Assembly (NCBI GenBank): GCA_050084515.1
Contig: CM114271.1
Coordinates: 15,996,001-16,060,000 of the forward strand
DNA length: 64,000 nt
Source of the DNA: Blasia pusilla
Taxonomy: Eukaryota
Reading direction: 5' to 3'
Position numbers and translations under genes: made by a program. Below are positions 4,901 to 60,025 of this stretch, piece by piece (within the stretch, counting starts at the first letter, position 1; each line of letters starts with the position of its first letter). The notes beneath the pieces are model-generated. The model saw only the letters and a list, made by a program, of their open reading frames with translations, did not search any database and had not been told where the DNA came from.

Positions 4901-5169
4901 CTCGGCTTCTTCCCTCAACTCTTTATTCTGTTTCAGTCTCTCCTGCATTATGGCATGCGCATTTCGAGGCATAGAGTTCCTTCAGCTAGAAGATTCTCAA
5001 GCTACAATTTAAGATCTCCAATTGCTTCTTTGAATTCCTTGGTGAGCACCCCAAATCCTTTCATTACATTACACGTCAGTCTGGAAAATGAAATATAGAC
5101 GAATGGCAGGCAGATTTATCACTTCAATACCTTGTTTGCATCAAGCTGATCATGGAGGTCAATCAAATA

Positions 5170-5730: not shown

Positions 5731-5958
5731 AGAGCCAACAAAAGAGCCCTCCCATTTATGAGATTGAATACTTTGCAAATTTTGACAAAGCTTTATGATT
5801 TTGAGCCATGCAGGATTCAGTACTACTTGTACTCGAAGCTGGTTGTTGCTTCATGTTGTGAGCGCCATCGATCACCTGTGTGTAGCTCTCCCTGTGTGCA
5901 ACTCTCCCCGATACTTTTCCAAGGTATTTTTCAGAGGACCACTACTTTACCTTGAAGG

Positions 5959-6546
5959 ATGAATCCAGTTGACCAACCACCGCTTGATGTACAAATTGAA
6001 CTTCATGGCAGCCTACGACTACATCAAAGACAACCTTCCTTGGTTCAACGCATCCAAAGTCTACCTACTGAAGTTCAAGTGATGATTTGTTCTTTACACT
6101 CACGTCACTATTGGTATTGGACCTGGCATGAACGAATTGAGAATTGGCGCTTTCATTCAAAAGCACGCCATGTATATGTGACGGTCTCTGATTTCGTGTC
6201 TAGGCAAGAGGATCGATACTCCATCCTTCTTTGGTTGATGATGGGTGTTACAGAGATCATGACCCTTCATATCTATCATGATTCTGATGGCATGGTCGTC
6301 GGTGAGGACTCTTCACCCATATTTAGGAAGGCGTTGGCTCTTATCCATGCAGCTATTGCATATTCTGGGAAACCATGTATAGTCAGATTTGAGTTCTCTT
6401 CTGTGAGAATGGAGAGACTTCCTGGTGAGAGAATATGCAGCACAACTGGTTATCGTAGGGAGAACTTGAGTGGTCTTCTTTGCCCATGTTGTGCTCATTT
6501 TTGTTGTGGCCCTATTTGGTGGCGTTCAAGGAGAGCAACTTGGTAG
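5959..6546 (+). CDS. Hypothetical 195-aa ORF within the CACTA, weak F-box-like N-terminal motif
   Basis: ATG-initiated ORF; IQSLPTEVQVMICS resembles the F-box LP.E...I pattern; nothing else recognisable. Confidence 0.3.
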   Translation: MNPVDQPPLDVQIELHGSLRLHQRQPSLVQRIQSLPTEVQVMICSLHSRHYWYWTWHERIENWRFHSKARHVYVTVSDFVSRQEDRYSILLWLMMGVTEIMTLHIYHDSDGMVVGEDSSPIFRKALALIHAAIAYSGKPCIVRFEFSSVRMERLPGERICSTTGYRRENLSGLLCPCCAHFCCGPIWWRSRRATW

Positions 6547-7662
6547 GTTTGGAACTTTCAAACTCTATAACTTTTTGAGTGAGATTGACTTCATTTTGTT
6601 AAAAAGGCAGAAAAGGATGGTTTTAAGGAACTCATGTATTACAAGTGATAGAGAAACTATTTTCACCAATGACTATAGATTGGAATTTTGGATATATATA
6701 CCAGATTTTGAGATGAAGTAAGAGGGAGCTAGTAGAGAAAGTGGAGCTCAAAGCCTATTTTGGAACACTGACTTTTGATTTAAACTGGTTTATAATGACC
6801 ATCAACTTCGGATAGAAAGCCATTGTCCAGTTGATGTAAATACGGATGATTTCAATTTTTGCATGAATGGATAGGCCAAGTGGTTTGATTTTCTATATCT
6901 TACCATACCATCAACATAGAATGCAATATCACGCAAAATTTACCACAAAATGCAGTATTCTGGATGACAAAAAAATCAGGGCAGCAAAGTGTTTGTGGAG
7001 TTGTGATGTGGCTAAAAATTGAACCGGGTTTTGTTATGTAGCGATGAGGGCTAATCCTCTGACTCTGTGGTTTTCTTTTAATGCATAATTTTCCCAAAAA
7101 AAACTTAAAGCTACAATGTTTAAATGAAGAAATGTAGAAGAAATAACCATACCTTTCAAACAGACAACCTAAAGATAAGGCATTTGACATGGAAATGGTC
7201 TGAAATTCTGAAATCATAGATAAATCATCACTTGAAGTGCACATAGACTTAGGGAAAATTAAATCTTATACCACCTTATAGTATTCAAACTATATTGATG
7301 TATTTATATCTGATCATTCACGTGATACAATCTCTATGCATATACTTAAGACATCTGCATGTGTCATGTTGTGAAGGTGTGTGTCAAAGTTCATTTGTGG
7401 ATTGTAGAGGATCAAATTATCACTATCAGAGAAGGATATCAACGAGAGGTTTATATTTCCCGGAGGGGTATACTTGATATACTCAAGGTACGTAGATAAT
7501 TACGGATTCTCCCTTCATTTATATTGAAATCAACATATTTTGCTCCAATAGATATCCACCATACTGAAACATTTTCACTTCCATGTTTATAATGTTAGGA
7601 ACAATGGGATGCCATAATTTCCTTCATTCATTTACCTCTGTTCTTATTAACTTGACGTAGGG

Positions 7663-10600
7663 GTGATGATACCACAAAGGACTGCTCACGTCCGGTTGGA
7701 TTTGACACATCCTCATAGAATCCAAGCACACGACTATAAGTTGTGGCAAAGGGAGTGCGATAAGTCTCGCAAACTAGGGAGGAAGAGGGCAAGATGCCCT
7801 TGTACAGAGTGCAAGGGCGGAACTACCTTGGGACTAGCAAAGGTAGAAGACCATCTAAGGAAAAATGGTCGATCTCATCTTTGTCGAGTTCCAAAAAGTA
7901 GGGAGGAGTGGGACTCTTCAGATGAGGAGTTGCTCACACAACAAGAGGTCAATGACAAGTAGCAACGTGAGCACATTATGCAATCCTATGTTAGACCTGA
8001 AATCTCGCATCCAGAGAATCCTGATTTGGATGTTGATATTGATGTTCCCCAGATGTTGAATGATATTTTTAGAGAATATGATCATCTCCATGATGAGGAT
8101 ATGGTTGTTGATGAAAGTGGGACAGAGAACGAGAACCTCAATGAAACCAATGATCCAAATATTCCATCAGATTTTCATGAGCTTACCGCAGCATGCAAGC
8201 CACTCTTCCCTGGAGCCAAGACTTCTTTACTTGCATTTGTTATGCTCCTTTTCAATATTGGTACGACCCATGGGGTCCCTAATATTGTAATTGATGAGAT
8301 ATTGAAACTCCTACGTAAGATGGTACTCCCATCTGAAAATCTTGTCCCACCATCATACTATGCAGCAAATAAACTCATTAGTAAACTTGATATGAGCTAC
8401 AACTCTATCCATGCCTGCCCTAAAGGTTGTGTTCTATTTCGAGGGGACTTGGAAGGTGCAGAAATTTTCCCGAAGTGTGGGAATGCTAGGTTCAAGCAAG
8501 CCAGGAAGTCTTTAGTACCAAATAAGGTATTGAGACACTTCCCTTTAATCCCGCGGATCCAGCGTATGTATAGGTGTAGGGCCTTGTCTGAGTTATTGAG
8601 TTGGTCTTCTGAGAACAAAAGTAAGGATGGCATGGTAAGACATGCAGGGGACAGTAAGGCTTGGAATCATATTGATTGTTTGTACCCAGATTTTGCTATA
8701 GAGGGTAGAAATTGTAGGTTTGGTTTAGCACTTGACGGAGTTAATCCATACTCTGATAAGGCAAGCTCATGGTTAGCATGGCCAATCCTATTGGTTAACT
8801 ACAATTTGCCACCTTGGCTTCGAAAAAAAAAGTTTTTTATCATGTTGGCTCTTATCATACCTGGTAAGGAGAGTGTGAATGGAGAGAATATCAATACCTT
8901 CTTGGCCCCCTTCGTAGAGGAGTTTAGGAAGTTGTGGAATGGAATTGAATTCCACGATGTGAAAAAGACCATATGGGTTCAAATTTAGAGCCATGATCTT
9001 ATGGACTATAAGTGATTATCCAGCCTATGGCACAATCTCAGGGCAAAGCCATGGTGGAAAACTTTCATGTACCGTATGTGGACCGTATGTGGATTCAGAT
9101 TTATCCAAACAATGTGGAAAGCCTATATTTGGCGGTCATAGAAGACATCTTCCACTAGACCATGTTTGGAGAGGGCGACCTTATGGCCCTCGATTCAATG
9201 GTGAGAGTGAGTCTAGACCACCACCGCCAAGGATTACATCAGATGAAATTCTGGAATGGGCTGAAGAGAAAAAAATATATGACGATGGAGGTGGTTGAGA
9301 GGATGCTCCTACTGATCCATACAAGAGGACAGGGGTCAAGCGGCAAAGTATACTCTTTGATTTGCCATACTGGAAAGTATCCAAAAAATATCTAATTATT
9401 TTCAAATTTTTGTTGTGATAGGTGATATAATTACTTATCTCTTGTCAACCATTAATATGCATATATTTTTCCTTGACCTCAACGTAGCATCTGCTGATAC
9501 GACACACCCTAGATGTTATGCATGTGGAGAAGAATATATCTGAGAATCTAGTTAAAACTCTATTTGGGATGAAGGATACAATGAAGGTTAGAAGAGATAT
9601 GGAGGCTCGTGGAATTTGACCTCACTTATGGTTACAACCCCATCCAAGTAAAGCAACAGGGTTAGTGAAACCTCAATGTGATTATGTTTTATCACCTCAT
9701 GAAATGTCCATTTTCCTAGCTAGGATTGAATCCACGAAAGTGCCTACAGAATATAGTGCGGAGTTGAAGAAGCACGTGGTTAAAAAGAAATTGGGATCCA
9801 TGAAGTCACATGATTATCATGTGATGATTCACCAAATCCTTCCCTTTGCCCTTCGTGGGCTAATGAAGGATCCAATTCGCTCATCAATCATGCGTTTGAG
9901 TAAGATATTTAGGTTATTGTGTTGTAAAGTGTATGATCGTACATGCTATGAACAACTACAAAAGGATACAGCAATTACCCTTTGCCTATTGGAGATGCAC
10001 TTTCCACCATCATTTTTTGATGTGATGACACATCTTCTTATCCACGTTGTCCAAGAATTGGATATATGTGGGCCTTTAGCTTGCTGATGGATGTATCGAA
10101 TGGAAAGATACATGGGTACTCTGAAAAAATATGTTAGATCTAAAGCTCGCCCAGAGGGATGTATGGCGGAGGGGTATATCAAAGATGAGGCATTGGGATT
10201 TGTGAGTGAGTATATGAAAAGATTTGAGGATGTGAGGACACGAATATGGGATGACGGCCCGAATCGAAGGGTCGGGGGGAGGAGTTGGAAGGTGCAGGAC
10301 GTGAAATCATATTATCCCGAGAAATGACTATCTTGGCACACCACTATGTCCTACACAATATGGAGTGTATGGTAATGTGGCGCAGGTAAATTTCAACTAT
10401 ATTCAATGAATTCAATGTATGGAAATCCTGAACCTGATCTTCTGAACCTTACATGTTTGTTTAAGCTTCCACGTCACCTTATTCTTTGGTGATGTTCTTT
10501 CTTTCTACCAGGAAATTTGAGGCTGAGAATGCATCAGTTTCTTTTGAAGAGTGGATTCAACCAGCTATCCTTCGAGATGCTTGGGAAAAAGATGGGAAGG

Positions 10601-11260
10601 AGGATGAAGAGCTATTGGCTTTGTCAATTCCTCCACAAGCAAAAGTTCTCTCATACAAGTCTATGAAGGCTTATGGCAATCACTATAGGGTAGAGGGAGA
10701 GGGTGGATATAATGCATACTCCACTTACGATAGTGGAATTGGAGCAATATTTTTGGATGAGGGTAATGATGATCGAATTGTGCTTATTCATATGTGGGAG
10801 TTCTGGTCGATGTAATTGCGCTTGATACGGGATTGTTGATCAACCTGTAATATTAATGAGAGGGAGGTGGGTGAGGGCAGATTGGAAATCACGGATGCCA
10901 TCCATGAAGCGAGACCGTGAAGGCTTCCTACTTGTAAACCTTAGATCTTGTGAACCTATCAACCATCAACCCTTTGTGTTCCCATCTCAAGTGGAACAAG
11001 TCTTTTTTGGAGATACGAACAAAAGAAGTGGATGGAAGGTTGTTTTGAGAAAAGAAGCTAGATCCCGTCGAGTAATTTTGGATATCTATGATGGTGGAAA
11101 CCTAGATGAAGGATATTTTGTTGCAATTGACCAGATTGAAATGCCATCAGGAAGAGTGCCACTAGCTAACACTCTAGGTGCTGTAGAGCTCACTGCTGAA
11201 GAGGTGGTGACTGCAAATAGAGATTGTAATAATGTCCCTATCATCCAAGTGTCCACATAA
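7663..11260 (+). pseudogene. CACTA transposase (TnpD-like), with introns, frameshifts and stops
   Basis: CPCTECK...HLRKNG associated domain; IHACPKGCVLF, GLALDGVNPY, YNLPPW, TISDYPAYG (Transposase_21); DVMHVEKN; MKSHDYHV, FPPSFFDVMTHL, WMYRMER; QPFVFPSQVEQVFF. Confidence 0.92.
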
Positions 11261-11473
11261 GTGCTTTATGAAGAAGAGAGCTCCAAAGAGGATGTAGAGA
11301 TTTAATTTTCCTTTTGTTCAAATATTAGAGATACATGCGGTTTGCTTTGAGAAGTGAGTCAAAAGTCATGGTTCTAGTTTAACCTTTGTGTGAGATGTTT
11401 GCATTTGTCAATCATGCATGATAACTCTCCTGATTCAACTCCTTGACGACATTTTTCAACAGAACCTTTCATA

Positions 11474-14400
11474 ATGGAGGGCCATTCATATGCCCTCCAA
11501 GGTAGTACAATAGGTGGTAAGGGGGGAACTCGATCAGACCTTGAGGCTATTCTTACTTCTGAAGGCCTACGTGATGCAAGTGGGGAACTTCCTGATGGGC
11601 TAAATCATCAGGCTTGGGCCTTGAAGTGGAGACGTCATAAGAACAAGAGTGAGATATGTGTGTATCGTTTCGTGGTGTATGATGATCTTATTGATGAGAG
11701 ATGGGGGCCCTTGCCGAGTGATGTAGAGAATGTCCCTAGAGAGGATAATATCAAGGGTGATGAAAGAATTGTTGCTGATGGTGAATTGAAATGTGCAAAT
11801 GCACATGAACAAGAGGATAAGATAGGGCAGACAAGGGAACTTGACCAAGGCCAGGAAAATAATTACGAGATGCAAAATAGGATTTCCACTGCATCTATAG
11901 TCAGAGAGAGTAGTAATACGTCAAGTGTGTGTAGACCCGATTCTATAGGGCACCTTTCAGATCTGAGTGCAACCATGGAGAGGGCTGATCTCAGCAAAAA
12001 TGTGGTGGCTTATGATTTGAGTACAGAGGGGCAAGAAAAATCTAAGGGTTTTGAAAGAGAGGCAATGACTTATGAGAGAGAAACATCACCTCTGCACATT
12101 ATAATGGATCCAGATGGTCAAGATAATGACAACTTAAGACATCCTAATACGCCCACAAACTCTTCAAACTTGGAGAACTCTGATATTGGTGATGGATTTG
12201 AGAGTCCAGACCTACTGGATAAGGACCTTCATGCTCTACTCCCGATTCAACAAGAACGGGCACGGAAGATAAGGGAAAACAAAAGAAGAGCAGAAAAAAT
12301 TCTCGGTGCTATTCCCTCAGAGTAAGTAGATCACTACCTTGCATGAGATGTGAATTGCAATAATATTGCATGGTTTTCCATTCCTTCTTGCATGCAGTTT
12401 CCTTATTCGTAGAAAATGAGACTTGCATGATCTTACATAGATGATTGATGATGAAACCATTGTTTGGAAAGGCTGAGACCAGCAAAGGCATCCAAGAAAG
12501 CCTCATGTTGTAGAGAAATAGTGGCAGAGGTAGTGAAAAAGCGACGAAGTTTGAGATTGACATCAAAGGTCTTGGAGAGCTTACCAGGTCCTTCAATGCT
12601 TGAAAGCCTTGAGGATAATAAAATGAAAGATCCAGATTATATGCCAACTGAAGATTCAGAATACCAAAATGATGAGGAAGATGTACCTGATCCTCCATTC
12701 GTGAATAAGGATACTGGGCCGACATTCCATCCGATCCAAGTCAAAAGGGTAACTACAATGATATGTTATATACCATCTTCAGTAAGATTTTGTGTGGGAT
12801 ACATAATTCTTCCAATCTCTGTGTTTATTTATTATAATACACTAACTTTTATTTATCTTTCATATGCTCAGGGTATTGGAGGGAGAGAATTCCACGAATC
12901 TCATGCCAATTATAAGGCACATGATTCAGGCCAAAGTGGGAGATCAGAAATGGGTTGGCAATATCCCCCATGGTCAGAGAGTGGTAGCCAATACTGGGGT
13001 GGACCAATGGGTGCAAGGTGGTACACTCATGAGCGCGAGCCGTCGATGTTGAATCATGGCCCACACGGCTCTTATGGCTTGCCCCTAAACCCTTCCCCCC
13101 GACCACAATGGGGACAACTCCTACAGCTGAACACATGACCGCTCAAGGCCAATGGCCTCGAGGCATGTATTGGTCACAACCTAGAGTTGTAGAACGTCCC
13201 TGGTAGGCAATACCCAGCCATCTCTACCATCTAGATCTCACGCCGAATGGGGTCCTCATACACAAACTTTTACCCCGATGGGGAGTCAACAACAATGGGG
13301 ACCCATTCAACTTGGTTCTTCAGGCCAACCATGGGCAACGCCAAGTGTAACCTTCTTTCCACATTGTGTATTTATGATCAAATTCTCTATTTTTAAGGAA
13401 TGATAACTCTTTAACTCTTGATCTTCTCATGATGACTCGAAAAGTGGCCATTATCCTTTCCTGCTTCGGTGTGTTTTTTCAGATTGTGAAATCCTGATTT
13501 CTTGTCTATAGTGTTGATGAAGGATGTAAGAGTGCTATCTCCATATGTGGACAGGATGGAGCACCATGCCCTCCGCCCCCTTATCCAACTGCAGGAGAAG
13601 GTTTTGACTCAACATTTTCTGATGGGCCATCGAGATTTGTTGGGACGAGTGTACATTCGCATCAAAGTGACAGTCAGTCTTTTATGGCCCCTAGTCTCTC
13701 CAAACCCAGAAATAAAAGTGGGGGTATGTCCACATGTAGTCGCTTTTGAGGCATGGTCTAAATGTTGACCAATAATGTTGGGTACAAGTGGTTAGTGACC
13801 TGGTCTTTTATTCCCTACATTTTGTAACATGTGCATGTCTAAATTGATTTTCTTGCGCCTTTCATTTCTTCAGGTGATAGGGCAAGTGCGAGGAGAAGTA
13901 GGACCAAGAGAGATTTGTGGAACCGTGATGTGGCTCAACGCAAGGACCAAAACCTACTACCTAGATGTGAATTGTTGCCTACTGGGGTTCCAAAGACGAA
14001 GGTGCCCGATTATGAGCCATGGTTGAATGACCTAAAGGTATGGACCCTACGCTATCTCGACTTATCATGTGTCGAGATGAGTAGGCAAGAGGCTATTAAT
14101 GTGGCAACAGTTCGCAAGCACATTGAGAGTGTGTACATATGTTGGGGCACCATCTTTATGTTTGGACTTTTTGAAGAAGAAATGTGCACAATTATTAAAA
14201 ATAGAACGGTCCACAATGAAAGCATATTGGGTGGCCAATGGGGCTCATGTTGATGTCCCTTGCCACCCTGATGCTAAGGAAGATGCAGGGGGCCGTTTGG
14301 TAGATTATTGGCTTTGTGAAGAGGGTATGTTGAAGGCCCAAAAGATGGTGAACGCAAGATCAAAGGTTATGACTTTAAATCACAGCGGACGGGGAGGTTT

Positions 14401-16724
14401 AGAGGGGTTTTCTGTAAGTTATCCTTAGCTTTCATTTCTTTTATATTTATGATTTCTGCACTTTGGTGTTCAGATTGTTAATGTTTGTCAATGTTAGTGA
14501 TTCTAATTGTGTTGTTGGGTTTCTCCATGTATAGGGCAGAGGTGGATCAACCACACAAAACAATGTAGGTGTTACTGACAATAGACCAATTCCACAACAA
14601 GAGAGTCTTGTAAGTTAGCTATAATTATGTGTGAATTATTTCCCGTGTATTGTGAGGTTTGTAAATACATTGTAAATTTTTTCACCACCTGATATATTCA
14701 CTTTCATTGGTTTTTATGTAATCTTACCAATAGGAAGGAGGTGCGACAGTACCCTTGACCACGAAAAGAACTCAAGAGCAAACACACCCAATGAGTGATA
14801 GCCTTTACACTGGAGGTTCCCGAGTGAGTATAATGCTACCGAGTTAAATATGACTTATGATAGTGTTTGATTTATCCTCATACAAAGACTGATATAGCCT
14901 TGAGTTGGAGCTATATATTTGCAAGGAACATACTAACTATATGGATATCATTTTATTTTTCAGATGAGTGTAGAGTCAAGCATAACCACTCAACTTCTGA
15001 AGGTAGAGAAGAAATGGAATGCAGATATGGGTGTTATCAAGGGTGATCTTGAGCAAAAATTGGAGAGGAACCAACTCCTCTTGGAGAAGAAGATGTCAAT
15101 CAACCAATCCCTGATTGAGGAGAAGTTGGAAAAAAACCAGAAAGAACAAAAAGAGGCCTTTTCCATGCTTGTTGATATGATCAACAAGCTTTCAGAGAAG
15201 AGGAGACCTAAAGTGAACACATGTGGTCCTTCTAAGACTCATATTATGAGTCAGCAAGAAGGTAAGAGTCCTCTCTCAAGTTCGTTTCTTTTCAAGCATT
15301 GGTGCAATTATTAGAAATTGATAATTTTTCCTTTGAAATTACATGGCAGATCTTGCTCGTGTCAAGGATGGCCCTTCGAAGATTGGAGTAGATGTTTTGG
15401 GTGCTCATAAGGAGGTATCAAGGGACTTGGATGGGCAAACTGAAGGGATTCAAGCTGGTAAGTATCGAGTTTAGAAAATCTTGATTTGGTTTATAAAAAT
15501 TATATCCTTTGTAAGTGCAGATTCTTTTAGTTTCTTATAAATATTGTTGTTGTGTGATAGTAAAAAAGGCAAACGAATCAAAACCCTGCTCGCCTTCTGA
15601 AAATCCTAAAGCAACAACTCTCTCAGGTTTGGTTTTCTTCCCCTCCGTTCTTTTGTTATCCCTACCCTTTCTATAGTTTCAAAGAGATCTTCAATGCATT
15701 ATGGTTTAAGATAATGTACAAAAATTGAATGTGAAGTTCCAGTTTTGTGTATCGTTGTTTGCTTTGACAACATACCTAAAACAAAAACCCTCTCAGATTT
15801 CCTTTTCTTCCCCTCTCTACTTTTGTTATCCTTACACTTACTATAGTTTCAAAGAGATCTTCATTTTTTTCCAGCAAGAGAATATGTACAGCAGGTAAAT
15901 ATCAATTTCCAGCTTGGTATATCCTTACACTTACTATAGATTCAAAGAGATCTTCAATTTTTTTACAGCAAGAGATTATGTACAACAAGTAAGTATGTAC
16001 AACAAGTAAATGTCAAGCTCGACTTTTGGTATATTTCCCTCTCTGATATTATAGCTATATATCAGTAGCCTTCTATGGATGTACATTCAACATAACAAAA
16101 TTACTTTTCCTTTATTTTACTATCCTTTTGTACTATGCAGGTTTCATTGCTGGGGAGAAAGAGTCTTCTCCAAACAAAAAGAGACGTGTTACAAGAGTGC
16201 ATTCTGACGTCATTCAAGCTGCAAGTAGTGAACATGACAGCGATGTAAAGTCAGGAAGCAACAAAAAATACACTGGGAAGGTATGCACGTGGACTTGGAA
16301 GAAAAACTTTCTTGCTTGGCATGATAATCAGAACTTTATTCAAGTGCTACAATATTTCAATTGAAATAATTGTAACTAATAGTGTGTTGTGTTACACTTG
16401 ATGTATTTGTCTCCTCCAAAGACTCATTCGGGGATCTTGGGTTTGGAGATTCGTGTGGGCGATGAGGTTCAACTCCTAAAGCCCAAGCTTAGCAAGACAA
16501 TTTTGGGCACTGGTGTTGTAATTGGCATGAGTGGACAACATAAATTTCATGGGAGTGATATCCCATCGGGCATGGTACGGGTGGTTCTGAAGATTGTCCA
16601 TCTTGCATTCTTGGATCATAAGTTATGGCAGCCAAATGAGGCTGATATGCCGCCCCAATACACTTTGGGTGATGCTCTTGGAGGTTCAGTACTTTGGCCT
16701 GAAGTAAATTTGAAGAAATCATAG
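11474..16724 (+). pseudogene. CACTA second gene (TnpA/Ptta-like), multi-exon, decayed
   Basis: RLVDYW...NARSK...HSGRGG (Ptta-like) near 14300; C-terminal FHGSDIP...VRVV...LGDALGGSVLWP (Tnp1/En/Spm-like); many small GT-AG exons. Confidence 0.75.
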
Positions 16725-17129
16725 GCTAATATTAGACGTTCATGCCTACATGTAGACAATACTTACTTACAGTAGTGCATGTTTTTTTGACTCGTTCTCT
16801 ATGAAATCTCAAACTCTCCACAGAGTTCACTGTTGATTACTTGTAGTAATCTTTATGACCACTGTCTTTGTTGCTGAATTTACTTTTCTTCAATATAAGA
16901 GTACACAATTTTATTCTAGTTCTTGCATTGGACAGTTAGTAGTTTCCAATCACATTTTTGTTTTTACACTGCATTCTCAGTTGATGAATGGAGTGTCTGA
17001 ACTAAAATCTCCACCTTTCCCTTGATTTGGTTAGTTTATCGATGCCTTGTGAGAATCAATGCATGAATGGATAGGCTACATTCTGCAAAGAGAACCTTAG
17101 CCTTCTATCATGAGACCTACTTCTAATTC

Positions 17130-17887
17130 CCATATCTTGAAGTCATTTAAATATCAGATGAATCATATTAGTCATAAATCATTCAGTCATATAATGTAGC
17201 CAAACTCTAGTCATAAAAGTCAAATATGTAGGTACCTAGTCATATTCATCTATCATGCACTCATATTAATGAATCGTGGAGTCATTCAGACCTGTCATGC
17301 AAAATATCAATCATATAGAAGTTAGATTCTAGTCATAAGAAAAAATGTATTAAAAAAATATGGAGTCATTTAAAACAATCACATATTTAAGTTCCTAGTC
17401 ATATTCACAAAGCATGGAGTCATACAAAGTAGTCAGACTTTAGTCATACACAAAGACCATGTCATTTATTGAGTCGTATATAACCATTTAAAGTCATTTA
17501 TAAGAAACAAAATAATCAATATGACTTAGTCATATTTGAAAGCTTAGTCATAGAATTGAATGTGAAGTCATTTTTATGAAATTCTCCGAACAATATTACT
17601 ACAGTTGACTCATACAATGTGACATGTGTCATGATTTAAGTAGTCGTACTTGATGACTTGCCACGTCATATGCTGATATGGTCGTCATATTATATGACTT
17701 TAGTGACGTGTCAATCATTTAAATGAATGACTAGGTCTCTCATCCTAAAATGACTCGAGTCATGGTATGGTAGATGACTAGGCTTTTATGACTCCATGAG
17801 TCATCAGTCATTTCCAGTCATTTTAAGGCATATATGACTTGAGGAAGTCATATGAGCCAGTCATAAAACTATGGAATTGTTCTAGTG
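17130..17887. repeat. CACTA right subterminal repeats and TIR
   Basis: Dense AGTCAT/ATGACT motifs ending in TTCTAGTG. Confidence 0.85.
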
Positions 17888-18990
17888 ATACCTCAACCTA
17901 TCCCGATGTTGCGCAATCGCCAAGTTCTCAAATGTCATAGGCATCACTCTCCGAAATAACTCAGCCCTCTGAGAACATGCTCGCATCCATTCATCAGGGT
18001 CATCAAGGTTCAACTCCTCACCAAAATCTCGACAAATGGCCGTAGGCAAATCTGGCTCTGGGCCACAAAGCAACAAATACGGTAAGAAAGACGCTAGGGA
18101 TGCCTGCCTGCTAAATATATATCCCATCGCCAACCATGGCAACTGAAGGTCCCAATCTCCTAGGTGACCTCTCTGCAAGCCGTACTTGCGTAATCCTCTC
18201 TTCATTGTCTAGACAAGGCTCTCCGCTAGTCCATCCGCCTCGTGATGATCTCGTGAAGTAGTGCGGTGATCGATCAGGGTCTGATCACCCAAGGCCTGAA
18301 ACTCCCCGTGAAACTCTGTACCCTGGCCTGTGAACACCTCAGCTGGTGCGTTGTAATGACTCAACACTCGATCTAGAAAGGTTTACGCTACTCCCTCACT
18401 CACTTTGTCAAGCAATGCAACCAACTCTATCCACTTAGAGAAGCGTTCGACCATCACCAACACATAACGACGATGGCGCTTTGTCACATGTAAAGGTCCT
18501 GCAAAATCCAAACTCCATCTATAACCTAAACCCATGATCGGAAGTGGATGCAACTGTGGAGTCAAAGGATTGAATGATGCCCTGACTCGATCACATACCA
18601 TGCACTTGGCAACAAACTGCTGAACGTCAGAGTCTGCATGCCCCGCCATCAATACTTTATCTGGAGCAAGTTGTACGTCCGCTTCACTCCACAATGACCC
18701 AACTCCTCATGGGCATGATGCACCAAACGTGCTCTTTGCAAAGGATGAGGCACCACATGCACTCTACCATCCTCCCAAACTCGCAACACATGTGTCCCCT
18801 CCCACCGAAACCGTCTGGCTCATTGTAGGATGAGATCCCGCCCTCTAGCACCCATTGTGCTCACAACACTGCATGTACGCAGGTACTCTAAGACCACTCC
18901 ATCTTCGTGAATGTCTTGGCCACCTATTGCCTCCTCATTGGCCTCTGGATCTAAGGACTCTCCATCAAACCTCACCATCGAAGTCTCAGC
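17888..18990 (-). pseudogene. DDE integrase (copy 1)
   Basis: HAHEELGH, CMVCDR, WSLDFAGP, GLAE..VxTMKR motifs; frameshifted. Confidence 0.9.
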
Positions 18991-18993
18991 AAT

Positions 18994-20100
18994 CTAGCTC
19001 CCCGTAGCCAACAAGCCCAAATAGGCTAACGCGTGCCATCCTGGCACCAACTCCTCATCACTCTCACCATGCCAATGAGCTCTAGTTTCATCTCGCTGAC
19101 TCAAGCATGGGTTACGGCTCAAACCATTTGCATCCTGGTTGAGCATCCCAGGTCTATGCACCACCTTGAAGTCATACTCTTGCAACAAAAGAGCCCACCT
19201 GGCAAGCTTCCCTGTAAGCTTGTCAGACTCCATCAACCACTTAAGTGCTTGATGATCAGTAATGATGGTAAAAAGGTTTCCGAATAGATAACACCTAAAA
19301 TGTGTGACAGCCCACACCGCAGCCAAGTACTCACCCTCATACAAGCTATACATTGCCTCTGTATCGTTGTTCGAGCGACTAGCGTAAGCCATCACGAACT
19401 CTCTACCATCATTGTCATGTTGGGTCAGCACGGCTCCATGCCCCAACATGCTCCAATCGGTATGCAATTGGAAAGGATGCCCCTTGATCGCTCTCCTCAA
19501 TATGGGCGTGGATGTCAATATGTCCTTGAGCATCTCAAATGCTCTCTCTTGCTCATCCTCCCAGTGCCACTCTTGAACCAGATTGGTCAGCAAGGTCAGT
19601 GGCTTCGCAATCAAACTGAAACCCTTGACGTACTGTCGATAGAAGTTCACCAATCCCATGAATGCACGAACTCGACTCACATCTATAGGGCGTGGAACGC
19701 TTGTGATAGCCTCTATCTTTTTTTGCTACAGACCAAGCCACCTGGGTATATCGTATGACCCAAGTACTCAATCTGGTCGTGGAAGAACTTGCACTTGCCT
19801 AGACGTAGCTTCAGCCCATGTAACTGCAATCGTCAAAACTCCTCCTCTAGACGTCGCTCATGCTCCTCAACCGTGGCGCTAAATACTATGATGTCATCAA
19901 TATAACATTCAGCAAAATCCAGACCTGCCAAGATCCAATCCATGACCCTCTGAGAAACTCAACCAGGGCGTTTTTTAACCCAAATGGTAAGAATCGCCAT
20001 TGGTACAAGCAATCCTTCCCATGAGGATCAATGCCCCAAAATACCGTACCCAAATCCTTCATTCTAAATGCAAAAAAACTCCTATAACTCCTTAGGAATT
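18994..20100 (-). pseudogene. Gypsy RT (N-terminal part deleted) and RNase H (copy 1)
   Basis: LPFGLKN, YIDDI, FMGLVNFYR, LHTDWS, AYASRS, TDHQALKWL, LARWALLLQEY. Confidence 0.9.
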
Positions 20101-20437
20101 GATGTATCTAGCGCTGCTCTCCTCTTGTCAACTAAGGGCCCATATTTGGCTCCCAAGTCTCCATCGTGACTACGGTAGGACTCTCCGGCGCGGGTGTCGG
20201 TGGTTGCCATGGTGCAATCCCGTCTCGAACAACAGAACTCTCATCTCCACGTGTAGTACCCAAAACCCCACTCGATGCTATGGCTACCATCTCCTGGCGT
20301 ACCTGCAAAACATCCCAAGAAGTCCAGAGGTGTCTCTCCCGATCACCCTTGGTGTGTCAATCTCCTCTGGTCTTGCCCCCAGCCATTGCCTTAACTGTCT
20401 CCGTAGGCATGGGGCTCACCAACGCAACTATTGTGAT

Positions 20438-21470
20438 CTATCGCATCCTCAAACGATGTTGCTCAACTACTCTTAAGCTGAAAATCCATGTCAAGTAGTT
20501 TATGTCCATCGCTTGACCCAAGACATGACGTCGTGATGCCTCTGATAGTGACGGTATTACCATCACTCCTGTGGGGAATCCCATCAGTTGCTCTTGCTCA
20601 TCGGCGTTGGGCTCCATCAACCTTTGTTCTTGGTCATCCCAAACCAAGCCACGACGGGCCTCCTTGAATGCATAGGCAGCGGGCAAACTCACCAATGTGG
20701 CAAAGGCTGCCCGTGGCATGCCAATCCTGTTGACCACAATCAACGGCGGTCGATTATCGTGCTTCACTGCCTGTGATTGACGGCCCGGATCCAATATAGA
20801 ATCCACCAACAAATCAGAGGGGCGCTCCACATTTGCATATGCCCTCCGCAACACCTCGTGTGGTACCAAGTTGGTCCACCAAAGACGCGGGTGATGTGTT
20901 TGTAAACCCACACTCACTGCATCCAACAAAATTGTTGAGCAGATCCATGCGGGCACCTCATGTACACTCGTCACCACACGGGACCTCGAATCGCCCAAAA
21001 TCAGTACATTTTCCAGAATGTATTTTGGAGGACGAGACTAATGCTCTCGCAAGTGTCGCAAGATCCGCATCATCTCCCAAAACAACCTAGACCGAGTGTC
21101 AGCTAACCCACTACCTCGTCCAACACTCGATAAGCCCTAACACGGCCAACCAACAGTGACCAAATCTGTGGCCCCTACTCGCTCCAAGTCCTACGCCCCT
21201 AGTAATGAAATATCCCACGATAGGGAACTCTGGTATCCTTGGACAAGAGACGCAGATAACAAGTCGGGAAAATGGAGGCGTAACTGCGCCATATGGTGAA
21301 GTGAAGCGCATCTTGCAACATCATCAATCTCCACATACAAGTACTGCTGCATGCGTACTCCTGCCTGCAAAACAGCAGCTAACCCAGTGCTGATCTCTCC
21401 AAAGAGATCCAACACCCGAATATCCTCCTCTTGGATGCACCACACAATCGGGGTGGTGTCCAAAGGTATC
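20438..21470 (-). pseudogene. DNMT3-like C5 cytosine methyltransferase domain (copy 1), disrupted
   Basis: VLDLFGEI (motif I), GWPC*G (IV, TAG stop), ILENV (VI), THHPRLWWTN (VIII), EQLMGFP (IX), RHVLGQAM (X). Confidence 0.88.
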
Positions 21471-21757
21471 ATAGTAGCATTCCTCGCTACTTGGGGTTCC
21501 TCTGACCTATCAAACTCTGGTACAAACGTCTTGCTCCACGCAATCTGCACATGCTCAGTGGCTAAGCGTCGAAGCTCCTCAATCGAGCCCCAAAGCGGCA
21601 CCTCTCCTCCACGGACTGATGCGGCTATCATGATACTTCTCTCCATAAAAATACCAGGAACAGGAGTATCCTCTGCATGGACATGTCCCTCAATTGAATC
21701 ACTAGGCCAAGTGATGGCACTGCTAAATGCTGCTAAGGTCACCATCTCTCCTGGCCG

Positions 21758-24221
21758 TCACTCAATCACTGCACCTGTCAATCGAACGGGTAATGAGCTA
21801 AGGCGCCCATCACCTGACTGCCATCCTGTTATGTAGGACGCTGACTCCTTCCAGTAATCCAAGGAAAACCCCATCGAGTATAACATTGCTCCATCAACCA
21901 AGACGTCGTGGGACTCTGCATCAGTCAGTATCGCCTTGGCTCGCACCATGGACTCATCTGTAGGGTGTCCCGGGCAAATCCTCACCACGAACCTCCTATC
22001 GGGTGATATACTATGTGGTACTCGCTCCACCTAAGGATTTTTGTATCCGGAATGGACAACGCTCCACATTGGCTCTCGTCAAGCCCAATCCTTTGAATGA
22101 CACTTTCACCAACATGAGGGGTTGCGCTCTTGAATCCAACAAGACGCGCTGCGGACTAAAAGCTCTACCTCCGAGACTCACCAACTGGAAGACCTCTCCC
22201 CGATCATCCAGCAACACAACACCATGAGAAGCCATGGCACGTTTTATTGTGGATCTAGTGGGCATCTCTGCCATCCTAGCAATTGCAGCTTGCCATGAAT
22301 CCGACGTGGACGGCGCGAGCATCCGCTCCAAGGGCACGTCCATCACCTCCTCTGCAATCAGCTCTGAACGTGATGCACGAACTCCAACTCCACGCTCACA
22401 TAGCGTAGCGGCCAGCCGGAACACCTTGGCAGGCGTACCTCCCAATGTCATAACATCGGAAGCAAAAAATACCGGAGCACGGTACACCATCGTGGCGGCC
22501 CCCAACATCATACTCGACACATGCTCCTTCTGAGCATCAACACACTCGTTTCTCCCATTTCCCTCCGTGCCTGCACACCAATAACATCACCAACTCTCTA
22601 GGAACTCTGATCAGGACCCATGGATGTGTCCTCATCGCCTCGGACAATGTGAAAGACTGAGGAAGCCTCATCTATTTCCTGGCTTCCTCTTGCTGTGGAT
22701 CCAACTCTACGGCTCCTCCACACGTCACAACTGCGGTGGCCTCCATCTGGGCAACCACGTACAACCAACCAGGATCCTCCATATCTCTGGATGCTCCATA
22801 TGATGTCGATGCCATAGATCCAGCATCGTGTAACCTCAATGCCATAGCGGAAATCTGCTCTTGTAGCTGCTGTATCTAAGCAACCATCCGAGCCTCAAGC
22901 TCAGCGTCTCCCTCGACGCGTCTAGGTGGTGGGACCCTACCTCCTCCACAGGAAACTCCACCATCCTGTCGGGCAACTCTTGCTCCTTGTCCTCCAATGG
23001 GACCATCTGGTGCACAACCTTCAGGCCCCACCCGGACCGGCTACTTGCTCTGGTGCCCTCTCTGGACCTCGGTCCAGACGTAACTTAGGGTGTAAATTGA
23101 AATACATGGCGTGTGTGTGACCATACCTCTGACAATAGTCACAATGATAACCTCTTGGTGTAGCACCATCTCCTCCTCCATGTTGAGGCACACGTCCATG
23201 GCCCTGACGAGTGCAATCGCACTGATGATGGGCTCCACCACATGACCAACAAGTAATCGTATGCAGTTGCTACTGAAGCGTATATGAAGGCGCCGGTCTC
23301 TGTGGCATGGCCTCCCAGTATCCTCCCTGCGCTTGCGATGCCAGAGTCAACCTATCTTGGAGTCCACGTTGTTGCATTGGTGGTGAAGGCAATCGTGACT
23401 ACTCTCGCCCACACCCATGGTGGCTACGCTCTCCTCCCCCATATTACACTCAATGTTCTTGGTAGTCCTAAAAACGTCTCTCAACGTAGGTGAGGTATTC
23501 ATAAGAAGTACCCCCTCCTACACCCGTGTCCGCAGGGTCCGGTCCAACATCGCGTACCATGATTGGATAGCCTAAGCCTCTATTATCCCCTGAGTGACGT
23601 TGATCAACCACCGTAAGCGAGTGTAAGCCTCACGCAAACTCTCGCGCGGGCACCTTTGGAAGTCGTGGATGCTCCGCAACTTCTCCGTCCGTACCCCCTG
23701 GTAGCTCGCCCTCAACTCAGCAAAGAACTCAACCACATGGTTGAACCTTGGACGAAGCCGACTAGACGGTGCAACGCTCCAGTGCGAGTTACCCCTCCTA
23801 AAACATCACTGGTGGAAGAGGAAGTAGCTTCTCTTGACTCCTCCTCCTCATCTGGGAACAGCTCCTTCCATGACACATAGTGTGGGTTATAGTAGAGTCG
23901 CCATGCCTCAATCTCTTGGGCATATCTGTGGGAGAACTCATGGTTATCGTCGATGGATGCCCCCTCTAAATTCTGGAACATACGGTTCCATGTTGTAAAC
24001 GGGTTGAACTCTATAGAGTACATAGCCCGTTATGAGCCGCACCAACTCCTAAACTCCATGATGAAGTCGTGCAACTCAATCATGCCTATTGTACTTGAGA
24101 ACCTACGCAGTCCTCTACCTTGGTCCTCCATTTTGTACGCCCAAGCAGTAGGACTACTCAATGTGAGTGGCAAAGCACTACTCAACTCCTCTACACACTC
24201 CTCCTTGTGTGAAGATGACAT
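21758..24221 (-). pseudogene. gag and aspartic protease (copy 1)
   Basis: RRFSSTIGMIELHDFI gag N-terminus homologous to 61940-62731; zinc-knuckle remnants near 23130-23270; VLLDSRAQP protease motif. Confidence 0.8.
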
Positions 24222-25285
24222 AGAAGGAGGTCAAGGTGGTCCTGCACGTGGAGACCCTCAAAACCTCGCGCCACTCCGCCTAAACCCTCTAGAGCTACTC
24301 TTTGGTCCACCACCTTGCCTATCAAAGTCCCAAAAGGACACTGTGATGATCCTTGTGCCCCCTCACACGATCATTCTCCACCTTGCGAGTAATCACGCAA
24401 TCACTCAATCTAACATGCAGCACTCAAGCTACACTCTCTGACCAAGACGCGTGCTGTGTGGCACAAGCGGCGTGGTGCGGAAAGTCAACTGATCTACAGT
24501 CTCATCGATAAACCATCCTCAACTCTGGATATCCCACACATGTCTATGTCCCCTCAATCCATACGTCATCAATGCTCTTAGCATCACCACAAAACCCAAT
24601 GTCCCAAATAACTTCCCAATATCCAAAATTCTCTCACACGTGTAGGGTAAGAGACCATAATGGATAACCTAACAATAATTTCGATGTCGCTCATCAAAAA
24701 TTGCAAATCTCGACCCCAACTTGGTCGTGAAGACAACTACTCCAATCAGCAAGTCGTACTCCTCTCGTATAGACGGTGCTCAAACTTTGCAAGATTGACC
24801 TTAACTTTTTGCTTGCAACTATAAATTGTGCACTGTTTATTGTACAACGTGCACAGCTTCACGATCTACAAAGGCATCAAAAACTATTTCAAATAAAAAA
24901 TTCCAGTAAAAATTGATGTGGATTTTTGTAAAGCCCAACGTCTCTTTCTCCTACACAAAATTTGGCAGCGCTTCCGTGCTTATTTCTCCCAACAAAAATG
25001 TAAAACCTATGAAAACACAAATCAACATGCTACATGGTGCTCCTCAAAGCACTGGCATGGGGAAATTTTCTCCCATACTCAATCCGTATTAAAAATTGGG
25101 GAGCGCTTATGCGGGCCACTCTTCCACATGAAAAATCGGCAAAGGAAATATAAAAAATGAGGAGCTCCGACTCTGGTGAGCACTCCCATGAACTCCTAAA
25201 TAGGGAATACAATCCCCAACCTACAAAACCAGCAAGTGACTAGCGAGCTCCCCCATGAAGCTCTCTCACTCATCTCATTTCTCTC

Positions 25286-25805
25286 TTTGTAAATCAAGGG
25301 GAAATCTCTCTCAACACCATAGCTCTCAAATGTGTGCACTCTCACATGTCTCTCTCAATGTCAAACCAAACCCACTCTCCTAATGAGAGGCTTAGGTCAC
25401 ACACAAAAGGCAAGCAAGACCATAACTCTGCCGCCTCATGCCAAGAGGTTCATCAAAGAGAGAATGACATCTCAAGCTCTCTCTCCTTGAGGTATACTCC
25501 TCCCTTCTCCCAAGCTCTCTCCATGATAACCTATGCTCCCAAGTCACCTCCTTAACTCTTGACCTAATGTAGGAGGTCAAGAGCCACTTATCATAAATAG
25601 AAATTCAACCATATGCTCAAAATGGTACTACCCTAAAATAGTAAGTTCCTCAATCTGGCTCTAAATGAGCCAAAACGAAGGGGAAACCTGCTCTCTCAAG
25701 TTTCCCGGGGCCTCAGAAGGTCATCCTCGACCTCCTGAGATTGTCGCCCACTACTCGCAAAGGCACCCTACTAGATCTCTCTGATCTATCCTATAAGACG
25801 TGACA
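25286..25805 (-). repeat. 5' terminal repeat A1 of copy 1 (no B segment attached)
   Basis: Matches 1-438 and the reverse complement of 27779-28296; similarity stops where B2 begins in copy 2. Confidence 0.88.
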
Positions 25806-28418
25806 AGGATGCAGATGGTTTCAGCCGTAATCCATGCTTGAGTCAGCGAGATGGACTGAAGCTCGTTGGCATGGTGAGAGTGATGAGGAGTTGGTGCCAA
25901 GATGGCATGCGTCAGCCTATTTGGGCTTGTTGGCTATGGAGAGCCACATTGCGGAGACTTTGATGGCGAAGTCTAATGGAGAGTCCTTAGATCCAGAGGC
26001 CGGTGAGAATACGACAGGTGGTCGAGATATTCACGTCGATGGAGTGGTCTTGGAGTACCCCTTTGCACTGGCAGCGTTGCAAGCACAATGGGTGCTAGAG
26101 AGCGGGATCCGATCCTACATCAAGCCAGATGGTTCCGATGGGAGGGGACACATGTGTTGCGAGTGTGGAAGGATGGTAGAGTGCGTGTAGTGCCTCATCC
26201 TTCATAGAGAGCACGTTTGGTGCGTCATGTCCACGAGGAATTTGGTCATTTTGGATTGAAGCGGACATACAGCTTGCTCCAGATACAGTGTTGGTGGTGA
26301 GGCATAGAGACTGACGTTCAGCAGTTTGTTACCAGGTGTATGGTCTATGACCAAGTCTGAGCATCGTTAAATCCTCTGACCCCATATTTGCATCCACTTC
26401 CTATCATGGGTTTAAGTTATAGATGGAGTTTGGATTTTGGAGGACCTTTGCCTTTGATGGAGGGTCATAGTCGTTCTGTGTTGGTGATGGTCGAGCATTC
26501 TTGAAATGGATAGAGTTGGTTGCATTTCATGACAAAGCGAGTGAGGGAGTAGCGTATGCCTTCCTAAATCGAGTGCTGAGTCCTTATGCCACACCACCTG
26601 AGGTGTTGATACACCAAGGTACAGAGTTTTGCGGGGAGTTTCAGGCCTTGTGTGATTAGGCGCTGATCGATCACCGCACCACTTTGCAAGATCATCTTAA
26701 GGTGGATGGACTAGCAAAGAGGGTTATGCAAATGATGAAGAGAGATTTACACAAGTATGACTTGCAAAGAGGTCACTTAGGAGATTGGAACCTCCAGTTA
26801 TCGTGGTTGGCGATATGATACAAATTTAGCAGGCAAGAATTCTTATCTCATCCGTACTTGTTGCTTTATGGCCGAGAGCCAGATTTACGTGCGGCCATTC
26901 GTCCAGATATTGGTGAGGTGTTGAACCTTGATGACCCTGATGTATGGATGCGAGCATGTTCTTAGAGGGCTGAGTTGTTTCGGAGAGTGGTGCCCATGGC
27001 ATTTGAGAACTTGGAGATTGCGCAGCATTGGGATACGTTGAGGTATGCGACTATTTGGAGAGGTGGTTATCGACCTACTATCCAGAGATTTCATCATGGA
27101 GACTATGTCTAATTGCAGCAGACGGCACCTACGATGTTAGATGTAACTGCAAGGCGCACCCTCTTGAGAGTGCGTGACATTTTTCCATCTGATGTTCTCT
27201 TATTGGAGGGACGGGATGATATGGTATGGTTTGGAAGGACCATGTGCGTAACTGTGCGCCATGTCATCTTTCAAACATTGACAGTACAATTGATCCGAGC
27301 TTAGTAGTAGTTCCTGTAAGCTTACGGTGTATGTTGTGTGGTTTCGCCCGTATTGCAGCCACTATGCTAGTCTGTGATGGGTGTTCGAGAGGATGGCATA
27401 TGGCATGTTTGACGCCACCTCTCACTAGGATTCTTGAGGGATGATGGATTTGTCCCAGATGTACATAGAGTGGATAGTTCTAGATTTTGACTTGTGTGTG
27501 TGACATGGATGACAAGAAGGCGACTAACGATGGGGCCACATGAGCACCCGACCTTTTTGCTCTTAGTGTTTGAGAGATGTATGTCATGATAGGTAGGGAT
27601 AGTTGGCTATCTAGCGTTAGACGGACCTAACCACCAGCTAAGGGGGCGATTGGAGATATTTTAGTACTTCTTGCCTTGTTTTTTGGATGCCATGAGTTAG
27701 CATGGGATCGTGCGTGTTTGTGTGTATGTTTGTTGACAGCGATGTATGTTGTATAGCGATGTGTATGCGCACGACAGTTGTCACGACTTTTAGGATAGAT
27801 CGGCGAGATCTAGTAACACGCCTTCGGGGATGCTGGAGGACAATCTCATGAGGTGGAGGATGACGAGTTGAGGCTATGGGTAATCTGCGAGAACAGGTTT
27901 CCCCTTCATTTCGGTTCATTTGGAGCCATATAGAGAAACTTACTATTTTGGGTAAATTTTCATTTGGAGCATATTTTACTTTCCACTTTGGGAAGTATTC
28001 CTTGACCCGCTACAGCATATCAAGAGCCAAGGAGATGACTTGCAAACAAAGGTTACCGAGGAGAGAGTTTGGGAGAGGGAAGGGGGTATACCTCAAGGAG
28101 AGAGAGCTTGAGAGCTCATTCTTTCTTTATTGAACCTCTTGGCACGAGGCGGCAGAGTTATGGTCCCTTGCCTTGTAAGTGTAACCTGAGCCTCTCATTA
28201 GAAGAGTGGATTTGGTTTGACATTGAGAGAGACATGTGAGAGTGCACACATTTGAGAGCTATAGTGTTGAGAGAGATTGAATCTTGATTTATTAAAGATA
28301 TTTTAGTACTATTTGGCTCTTGGTTTGGATGCCATGAGTTAGCATGGGATCATGCATGTTTATGTGTTTTTTTGTTGACAAAGATGTAAGTTGTATAGCA
28401 ATGTGTATGCGCATGACA
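25806..28418 (+). mobile_element. Retroelement copy 2, 3' half (RNase H end, integrase, PHD, PPT-B1-A2-B2); host site of copy 1
   Basis: Starts mid-RNase H (DADGFSRNPCLSQRD); integrase motifs; CMLC..CDGC..WHMAC PHD at about 27330-27465; ends GCGCATGACA at 28418. Confidence 0.9.
27650..28418 (+). repeat. Split terminal repeat block B1 (27650-27776), A2 (27779-28296), B2 (28297-28418)
   Basis: B1 and B2 are direct repeats of about 125 bp flanking A; PPT AAGGGGGCGA at 27640-27649. Confidence 0.9.
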
Positions 28419-29100
28419 TAGTGGAGCACTTCTCCGAGTGGATTGAGCTTGTAGTGTTGCTAATCAAGTTAAGTGAAGGAGTTGCATTTATGGATCAAAT
28501 GCTTAGTTATTTTGGCGTGCTAGCAAAGATGCATGCAGATCAAGGGACAAAGTTTTGGAATGAGTTATAGACCTTGTGTGATCATACCTTAGTTGATCTG
28601 AACATGATCACCACACCATATCACAACATGATTGTGAGATACATGGATTGACATATTGGGTGGTTTAGACGATGAAGAGGAGTTTATGCAAGTATAACTT
28701 GGAGCAACGACACTTATGAGATTGGGAACCGGTTTAGTTGGCATGCATACATGGCCTTCTCTTCATCTCATTTTTTTAATGGAAATTTATTAGATTTGGA
28801 ACAAAATTATTCATGGGGATGCGGTGGAGGTTGTGGATCTTGGTGACCCATATATATGGATGAGGATGCATTCTCATTGGATAGAGCTCTTTTGACAAGC
28901 CATGCCCATGGCATTTTAGAACCTAGCTATTGCTCAATATAATATCACGTTGAGATATGCAATATTTTAAAGAGATAAATATCACCCAAGGATTTATAGA
29001 TTTCATCATTATGGTAATTTTGAATTTTTGTAAAGAGCATTAGTAACTTCGGATGTAATTGCATGACATAGAGACGTATTTCCATGAGGGGTTCTTGTGT
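28419..29100 (+). pseudogene. Older, highly decayed integrase of a related element; host site of copy 2
   Basis: VEHFSEWIELV, DQGTKF and AMPMAF*NLAIAQ remnants. Confidence 0.8.
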
Positions 29101-55607: not shown

Positions 55608-55684
55608 CCGCCCCCCTAGCTGGCAGTTGGATCCCCCCAACTCCAGATAGAAAATATCACATCTCTCTGACATGACCTACTACC

Positions 55685-59992: not shown

Positions 59993-60025
59993 TCCAAGAG
60001 CCCGATCGCCATGTGACTCTCGCGG

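Follow-up and report, generated by a model that had tools for sequence, protein, structure and literature searches.

Split direct repeats around a DDE-integrase retroelement of the Gypsy-DNMT3 kind in Blasia pusilla DNA

Split direct repeats, in which two repeated segments are laid out as A1...B1-A2-B2 and the internal B-A junction repeats both termini, are known from the PAT-like and Ngaro retroelements (PMC7192593). They are treated as a hallmark of retroelements with a tyrosine recombinase, and how they arose is unexplained. This layout is also present in a 64-kb stretch of Blasia pusilla DNA (GenBank assembly GCA_050084515.1, contig CM114271.1, positions 15,996,001 to 16,060,000, forward strand; hereafter the window, numbered from its first letter), in copies of a retroelement that combines it with a readable polypurine tract (PPT), primer binding site (PBS), DDE integrase (Pfam rve) and, in related loci, target site duplications (TSDs). 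How does an element with such an integrase come to have such ends? Because these signals can be read, each repeat can be assigned a role, with B+A as the putative long terminal repeat (LTR) and the B/A boundary as the putative integrase site, and the origin of split repeats becomes testable.

LTR Gypsy elements with a Dnmt3 domain in Pol have been reported from Klebsormidium nitens (de Mendoza et al. 2018, PMC5890265), where the legend of Fig. 4c describes the repeats of KnitGypsy-Dnmt3 as arranged as in a DIRS element and its domains as in Gypsy; a preprint (10.64898/2026.05.21.726589) mentions ‘streptophytes (Gypsy-DNMT3)’. The combination of Gypsy domains with split repeats, which an earlier note on this DNA had supposed to be undescribed, is already in print in that legend, briefly and there without analysis. 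The window element shares with KnitGypsy-Dnmt3 a C5 DNA methyltransferase (DNMT) within a Gypsy Pol polyprotein and DIRS-like repeats around Gypsy domains, and on this likeness of description we place it in the streptophyte Gypsy-DNMT3 kind. It differs in its host and in its best named protein matches, which are to liverworts and Sphagnum, with no Klebsormidium-named match among the 104 and 31 proteins listed.

In the literature, we found KnitGypsy-Dnmt3 treated in the original paper only, and no treatment of TSDs, termini, priming or mechanism in such elements; the figures and supplements of PMC5890265 may hold more. Titles and abstract openings revealed no other report of split direct repeats in a DDE element, and no Marchantia retrotransposon with a DNMT polyprotein was found. 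Added here are the reading of the LTR as B+A, a predicted self-priming signal, a candidate internal palindromic integrase site, 4-bp TSDs and a frequent short form, A...B. Such a family would be expected to be mis-bounded or missed by LTR finders that look for two identical LTRs with an outer TSD, and an element that carries both a DNA methyltransferase and a PHD finger bears on the interaction between transposons and host chromatin.

Repeat layout and polyprotein in the window

The window was compared with itself by BLAST, searched by BLAST with the segment 27640-28418, and searched by tblastn with pieces of the best-preserved copy (copy 3). Three copies of one retroelement group were resolved in this repeat-rich sequence. 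Copy 2 ends in PPT-B1-A2-B2 at 27640-28418, copy 3 has the same arrangement at 55620-54844, and copy 1 ends in PPT-B1-A2 at 579-1, its A2 being cut by the window edge at position 1; all three 3' ends are thus of the long form. The A1...B1-A2-B2 layout that the earlier note had described is confirmed by BLAST and by direct reading. The terminal features are as follows.

25807-28418, + strand: surviving part of copy 2, its upstream portion cut off by copy 1
25807-27465, + strand: coding tail of copy 2, with the end of RNase H, integrase and PHD finger (tblastn with copy 3 pieces)
27640-27655, + strand: PPT of copy 2 (AAGGGGG...), directly 5' of B1 (direct reading)
27654-27776, + strand: B1 of copy 2, ending ..CGACA (match to B2; B-end motif)
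27777-27778, + strand: spacer GT of the B/A junction of copy 2, ..GACA-GT-TGTCAC.. (direct reading)
27779-28295, + strand: A2 of copy 2 (81% match to A1 of copy 1)
28296-28418, + strand: B2 of copy 2; the element has its 3' terminus at the final A of ..TGACA (BLAST, motif)
25290-25805, - strand: A1 of copy 1, starting TGTCAC at 25805 (self-BLAST, reading)
1-1170, - strand: 3' part of copy 1, with the integrase tail and PHD finger, PPT, B1 (563-441), spacer AC (440-439) and A2 (438-1) (self-BLAST, reading)
54844-55620, - strand: 3' end of copy 3, with PPT 55620-55611, B1 55607-55476, A2 ~55466-54981 and B2 54980-54844
55688-55830 (- strand), 27330-27465 (+ strand) and ~753-800 (- strand): PHD fingers

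By BLAST, B1 of copy 2 (27654-27776) matches B2 (28296-28418) at 86% over 123 bp (E 7e-37), and its A2 (~27779-28295) matches 25806-25290 on the opposite strand at 81% over 520 bp (E 1e-135) and copy 1 574-3 at 80% over 574 bp; in copy 3, B1 (55476-55607) and B2 (54849-54980) are 96% identical over 132 bp. Direct reading places a G-rich purine run immediately 5' of B1 in each of the three copies, a two-base spacer between B1 and A2 (GT in copy 2, AC in copy 1), and the sequence ..GCGCA(C/T)GACA at the end of every B. A 36-nt motif at the B end occurs four times in the window and not once in 100 shuffles. These last 36 nt are nearly identical between subfamilies (copy 3 belongs to a diverged one, its DNMT being ~57% identical to that of copy 1), a degree of conservation that suggests a binding site. 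The sole 5' end in the window, A1 of copy 1, adjoins the interior of copy 2 directly, with B on neither side.

The coding content is that of a Gypsy element with additions. In copy 3, Pfam identifies DNA_methylase, RVT_1, RT_RNaseH, Integrase_H2C2, rve and PHD, in the Pol order protease, reverse transcriptase (RT), RNase H, integrase (INT), an order that copy 1 and the related loci described below share. The C5 DNMT (58868-60025, - strand; PF00145, E 3.5e-8) lies between protease and RT, and its catalytic-looking motifs are intact. At the C-terminus of the integrase, where chromoviruses have a chromodomain, there is a PHD finger (PF00628, E 2e-11), which may act as a chromatin-targeting module. 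The putative gag and protease open reading frames (ORFs) gave no Pfam match; when translated, copy 3 shows CCHC-like and DSGA motifs. No tyrosine recombinase was found in the window copies or the related loci, whose domain map leaves no unassigned coding space; the integrase is of the rve type, as the earlier note had held.

Termini and reverse-transcription signals in related loci

A single 5' end, in a window where no copy shows both of its ends, is a narrow basis for fixing termini. Relatives of the copy 3 DNMT ORF are found at 60-68% identity, the named ones being from Calypogeia, Marchantia and Riccia (liverworts) and from Sphagnum. An alignment of these relatives was used to fetch 80 metagenome-contig loci, which were mapped with protein pieces and a library of A and B sequences. 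In this metagenome family, A (339 bp) and B (117 bp) are shorter than in the window. A lies upstream of gag at 26 sites (~21 distinct after removal of contigs sharing the same flank), most of which have A starting TGTCATGACC directly after upstream flanks that are mutually unrelated. B was found beside the 5' A at 0/26 of these sites (within 50 bp upstream and 60 bp downstream). At the other end, all listed 3' ends carry B after the PHD finger. Two outcomes by which the earlier note would have had its own reading refuted, a complete A+B at the 5' end of other copies and the lack of B1 in most of them, were not seen in these relatives. The PPT G-run stands directly 5' of B1 in 24 of 28 3'-end rows, and in the other four (L024, L028, L073, L078) B follows coding sequence. 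The leader of L079 has no ORF longer than ~100 aa on the element strand.

The related 3' ends come in two forms. Among ~23 distinct ends, four are B-A-B, one is B-A cut by the contig end, one is B-A with a deletion at the junction, ~16 stop at a single B, beyond which the flank is unrelated, and one is of uncertain form. Eight loci hold both ends, two of them long-form (L079, L048) and six short-form. Around the first base of A1 and the final base of the last B, a 4-bp TSD is perfect in six of these eight (both long-form loci and four of the six short-form ones), matches at three of four bases in one and is absent in one. The placement of the TSDs puts the termini of the element where A begins and the last B stops, the TG and CA ends named in the earlier note, and a short duplication of the target fits insertion by a DDE integrase. 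Plant LTR elements with TSDs of 4 or 5 bp are on record (PMC6317226).

The two kinds of junction differ in regularity. Between B and A there is always a 2-nt spacer, of purine and pyrimidine (GC, AC, AT and GC in the four related loci L008, L044, L048 and L079), whereas the A/B junction takes several forms: L044 and L079 have an exact join, L048 carries 17 nt of filler that resembles nearby sequence, and different fillers occur in contigs from sequencing runs of the window organism (two DNA runs and two stranded RNA libraries under the same organism label were used). Within-copy identity of A1 to A2 and of B1 to B2 is 90.6-94.5% in L079, L048, L008 and L044; an A1/A2 pair at 63% in L060 was set aside, as it was taken to involve a mis-set or degraded A2. 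In L059/L060, at ~15500-15530, a deletion between a short stretch near the B end and a similar one near the A start has removed the B1/A2 junction; besides their inverted termini, the B end and the A start have a direct repeat in common. A joint in a DNA contig that skips 626 bp, from B2 to B1, was considered as a short-form candidate in the window organism and not counted, since one side has 21 letters only and B1 and B2 are 96% alike.

The signals for reverse transcription can be read in the same alignments. In the A consensus of the metagenome family, TATAAA stands at 139-144, and ~30 nt downstream A169-180 is complementary at 12/12 positions to a stretch made up of the final base of the 5' A and the 11 nt that follow. 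When the consensus leader was scanned against B+A, no other exact match of at least 12 nt appeared; we estimate a chance expectation of ~0.002 for such matches before account is taken of the two partners lying where a start site and a PBS are expected. The corresponding features in the window are:

25279-25290, - strand: predicted self-priming PBS of copy 1, spanning 12 nt across the A1 end (complementarity)
25496-25492, - strand: TATA-like box in A1 of copy 1
25464-25454, - strand: PBS-complementary 11-nt stretch in A1 of copy 1
28087-28091, + strand: TATA-like box in A2 of copy 2
~28116-28131, + strand: predicted RNA start region in A2 of copy 2

The PBS of copy 1 is complementary to a stretch ~32 nt downstream of the TATA-like box, at 11/11 positions in A1 and at 12/12 in its A2. 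The same pairing relation thus holds in copy 1 and in the metagenome family despite their differing sequences, which is covariation. Across 20 related loci the pairing is 12/12 in eight and at least 11 in 13, and in L040 two changes are compensated on both sides. For the subfamily of copy 3, one DNA contig has 9 nt after the A end that are complementary to A2 of copy 3, downstream of a TATA-like motif. No tRNA-type PBS was seen after A1 by eye, no search against a tRNA set having been made.

Judged from the sequence, this pairing is the signature of self-priming as in Tf1/Sushi elements, given the predicted RNA start. In mosses and club-mosses, self-priming has been predicted for the Tcn1 clade, which is related to Tf1/Sushi (PMC6317226); there too, the RNA start is complementary to a site just after the 5' LTR. 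Elements of that group differ from the one described here, with its permuted layout, PHD finger and extra DNMT, in having a chromodomain and two full LTRs. With the PPT adjoining B, not A, and the PBS adjoining A1, the LTR in the sense of reverse transcription is B+A; U3 would correspond to B and the first part of A, R-U5 to the remainder of A, and the expected linear complementary DNA (cDNA) would be (B A)-internal-(B A).

Read this way, the element shares with Ty3/Gypsy its Pol order, rve integrase, 4-bp TSD (in the relatives) and a PPT and PBS that adjoin the LTR. It differs in lacking the identical flanking LTRs that define the group, since A stands alone at the 5' end in copy 1 and at 26/26 related sites, and B-A-B or B at the 3' end. 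The earlier note had proposed a non-canonical route for replication and integration alike; with the LTR taken as B+A, the signals for replication look canonical, and it is in the placement of the integrase ends that the cycle appears unusual, which upholds a non-canonical step at that point.

A possible integration route and its rivals

A opens and B closes with short inverted repeats. In the window the pair reads TGTCAC.. and ..GACA, and in the metagenome family TGTCATG.. and ..CACGACA. Inside the LTR the two meet as a near-palindrome, ..GACA-NN-TGTC.., that becomes a 10-bp palindrome where the spacer is GC. The junction looks like two element ends joined before processing. Retroviral integrase can cleave the palindromic LTR-LTR junction of two-LTR circles, as a side reaction on a dead-end product, and Tf1 integrase must trim extra bases beyond CA. 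The B/A junction resembles the junction of such circles in the CA..TG of its joined ends, which an integrase could open to processed ends. In contrast to it, the B/A junction is permanently present inside each LTR, where it would be the usual substrate.

We lean, by a modest degree of confidence, towards a Ty3/Gypsy-type element with the LTR as B+A and with integrase ends at the internal B/A boundary. This account builds on the layout, the termini, the duplications, the PPT beside B and the covarying PBS pairing, all of them read from the sequence, and extends to a predicted transcription start site and a conjectured origin of B2. The integrase would recognize TGTCA... (start of A) and ...TGACA (end of B) instead of the ends of the B+A LTR, and an inserted copy would correspond to the LTR element displaced by the length of one B, with the structure A-internal-B-A-B and a 4-bp duplication of the target. 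As for B2, we surmise that the linear cDNA has its A end joined to its B start, through a two-LTR circle or by re-ligation of a released B piece, after which integrase would open the palindrome of the upstream LTR; a variable A/B junction beside a uniform B/A junction fits an A/B joint formed anew by end joining. The short form, A...B, could result if both palindromes were cut in the linear cDNA, if a one-LTR circle were cut, or if B1 and B2 later recombined.

Several observations weigh against this account. A circle with two palindromes predicts copies of the form A-B-A-internal-B equally often, and none was seen among the 26 related 5' ends, so that an extra assumption is needed; speculatively, integrase might prefer the palindrome nearest the cDNA end (B being much shorter than A), or the longer A-B-A repeat might be lost faster by recombination. 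The short form, absent from the three 3' ends of the window, makes up the majority of the distinct 3' ends in the relatives (~16/~23). The short forms may have arisen directly or by B1xB2 deletion, and assembly may be behind some of them, as these loci are short-read metagenome contigs. Within-copy identity of A1/A2 and B1/B2 is no higher than between-copy identity, a comparison that lends no support to the copying of each pair from one template per cycle and cannot separate concerted copying from inheritance by position. The window offers one 5' end and no copy with both ends, no cDNA intermediate was seen, and the mapped reads gave no usable pile-ups of starts or ends, the transcription start and poly(A) sites being predicted positions.

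The main rival combines replication as in Ngaro and PAT-like elements with a DDE integrase. RNA would run from inside A1 to inside B2, the outer parts would be restored from the internal B1-A2 junction, a linear A...B-A-B would be inserted at its TG/CA ends, and short forms would arise by later B1xB2 deletion. The layout is the same as that of the split direct repeats in PAT-like and Ngaro elements (PMC7192593), and this rival explains the absence of A-B-A-internal-B without further assumptions; the resemblance of the B/A junction to two joined ends also suits it. It sits less well with a PPT placed before B1 and not before A2, and with a self-priming PBS directly after A1, both of which predict B+A at the two ends of the cDNA. 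In contrast to PAT-like and Ngaro elements, which have a tyrosine recombinase and no DDE integrase, the element has rve, H2C2 and PHD domains, a PPT and PBS canonical for LTR elements and, in the relatives, 4-bp TSDs; to our knowledge, PAT-like and Ngaro elements make no target duplications. Variable fillers at A/B favor joining de novo over templated copying, although ordinary mutation could also yield them. RNA reads crossing from the B end through GT into TGTCAC.. of the A start number 80 and 124 in the two libraries, from which it follows that the internal B/A junction is transcribed, as this rival and the B+A account both need. On balance we hold the Ngaro-like route to be a serious contender, if rather an unlikely one.

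Two simpler explanations fare much worse. An ordinary element whose LTR is A+B, with B1 as a surplus internal copy and a 5' B that copy 1 had lost by deletion, would have a unit that starts TG, ends CA and carries short inverted repeats, and the single 5' end of the window would allow it; it is rendered very improbable by the missing B at all 26 related 5' ends, by PBS pairing that begins at the last base of A, by the lack of a purine tract ahead of A2 and by TSDs that bracket A1 and the final B. An artefact, whether an assembly error or the chance nesting of a solo A-B unit beside an A...B element, might be suspected in a region that is a heap of nested repeats. Yet the layout recurs: three window copies from two subfamilies have it, as do independent metagenome contigs and both contigs and reads from other runs. 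The TSDs of L079 and L048 bracket the whole of A...B-A-B, and the gap between B1 and A2 is only 2 nt; we consider an artefact scarcely credible.

Returning to the B+A account, a wider proposal can be built on it, which we offer tentatively and think doubtful as a whole. The DDE integrase would act routinely on the palindrome within the LTR instead of the cDNA termini, productive insertion would need a joined-LTR intermediate, and split direct repeats as a class, with Ngaro and PAT-like elements included, would represent LTRs that had been opened internally. B2 may, in addition, mark the 3' poly(A) site: it is rich in GU, and only at the 3' end does it follow A.

Nesting, sequencing depth and expression

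The remaining features of the copies and their surroundings are:

17888-25289, - strand: leader and coding region of copy 1, with gag, protease, C5 DNMT, partly deleted RT, RNase H and integrase (tblastn)
~21475-20444, - strand: C5 DNMT of copy 1 (tblastn map)
1171-17887, no strand assigned: foreign DNA (~16.7 kb) interrupting copy 1 (break in collinearity of copy 1 with copies 2 and 3)
55688-63371, - strand: leader remnant of copy 3 and its gag, protease, DNMT, RT, RNase H, integrase and PHD finger, with frameshifts and stops (translation, Pfam, depth)
28418-29099, + strand: integrase fragment of another, diverged Gypsy element (tblastn)

In copy 2, tblastn places INT at 26061-26833 and the INT C-terminus with the PHD finger at 26849-27462, and its tail matches copy 1 at 17888-19139 with 83.7% DNA identity (self-BLAST). 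The diverged Gypsy fragment begins mid-domain, exactly where copy 2 ends, with INT residues 155-221 at 28418-28612 (49% identity to copy 3) and an INT C-terminus at 28809-29099. Copy 2 therefore appears to have inserted into that element, and the nesting has at least three levels, with copy 2 in that element, copy 1 in copy 2 and a CACTA-like insert in copy 1. The insert within copy 1 (1171-17887) holds a CACTA-type transposase ORF at 7963-8988 (Pfam Transposase_21, E 5.6e-36) and two further ORFs (11447-12325 and 12455-13138) without Pfam matches.

The retroelement family is highly repeated in the runs of the window organism. Contig depth in the two DNA runs is in the thousands from 54624 to ~63371 and then falls to near background, and neither self-BLAST nor the A/B library detected a copy of A at 62000-64000; copy 3 is thus probably truncated at its 5' end inside the window, and of the B-less A1 that the earlier note had expected beyond 64000 there is no sign. 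The stretch 63372-64000 is a lower-copy repeat, with a depth of 17-67 (run X2) versus ~1 for the unique flank 54300-54623, and a short G-rich tandem lies at ~63640-63690, beyond the truncation.

Internally deleted derivatives recur, both among the related loci (L028, L073, L005, L056) and at joints between window positions (61992->55608, 54982->60876). They include fusions of RT or gag to B and of A to the protease region, and may be non-autonomous forms that keep terminal parts only.

Stranded RNA reads on the element are almost wholly sense, and most are less than 95% alike to it and so derive from related copies. Antisense RNA is enriched over A in both RNA runs, at 54948-55595 (A2 and B1 of copy 3), with a depth of 2-10 versus mostly <2 in coding bins.

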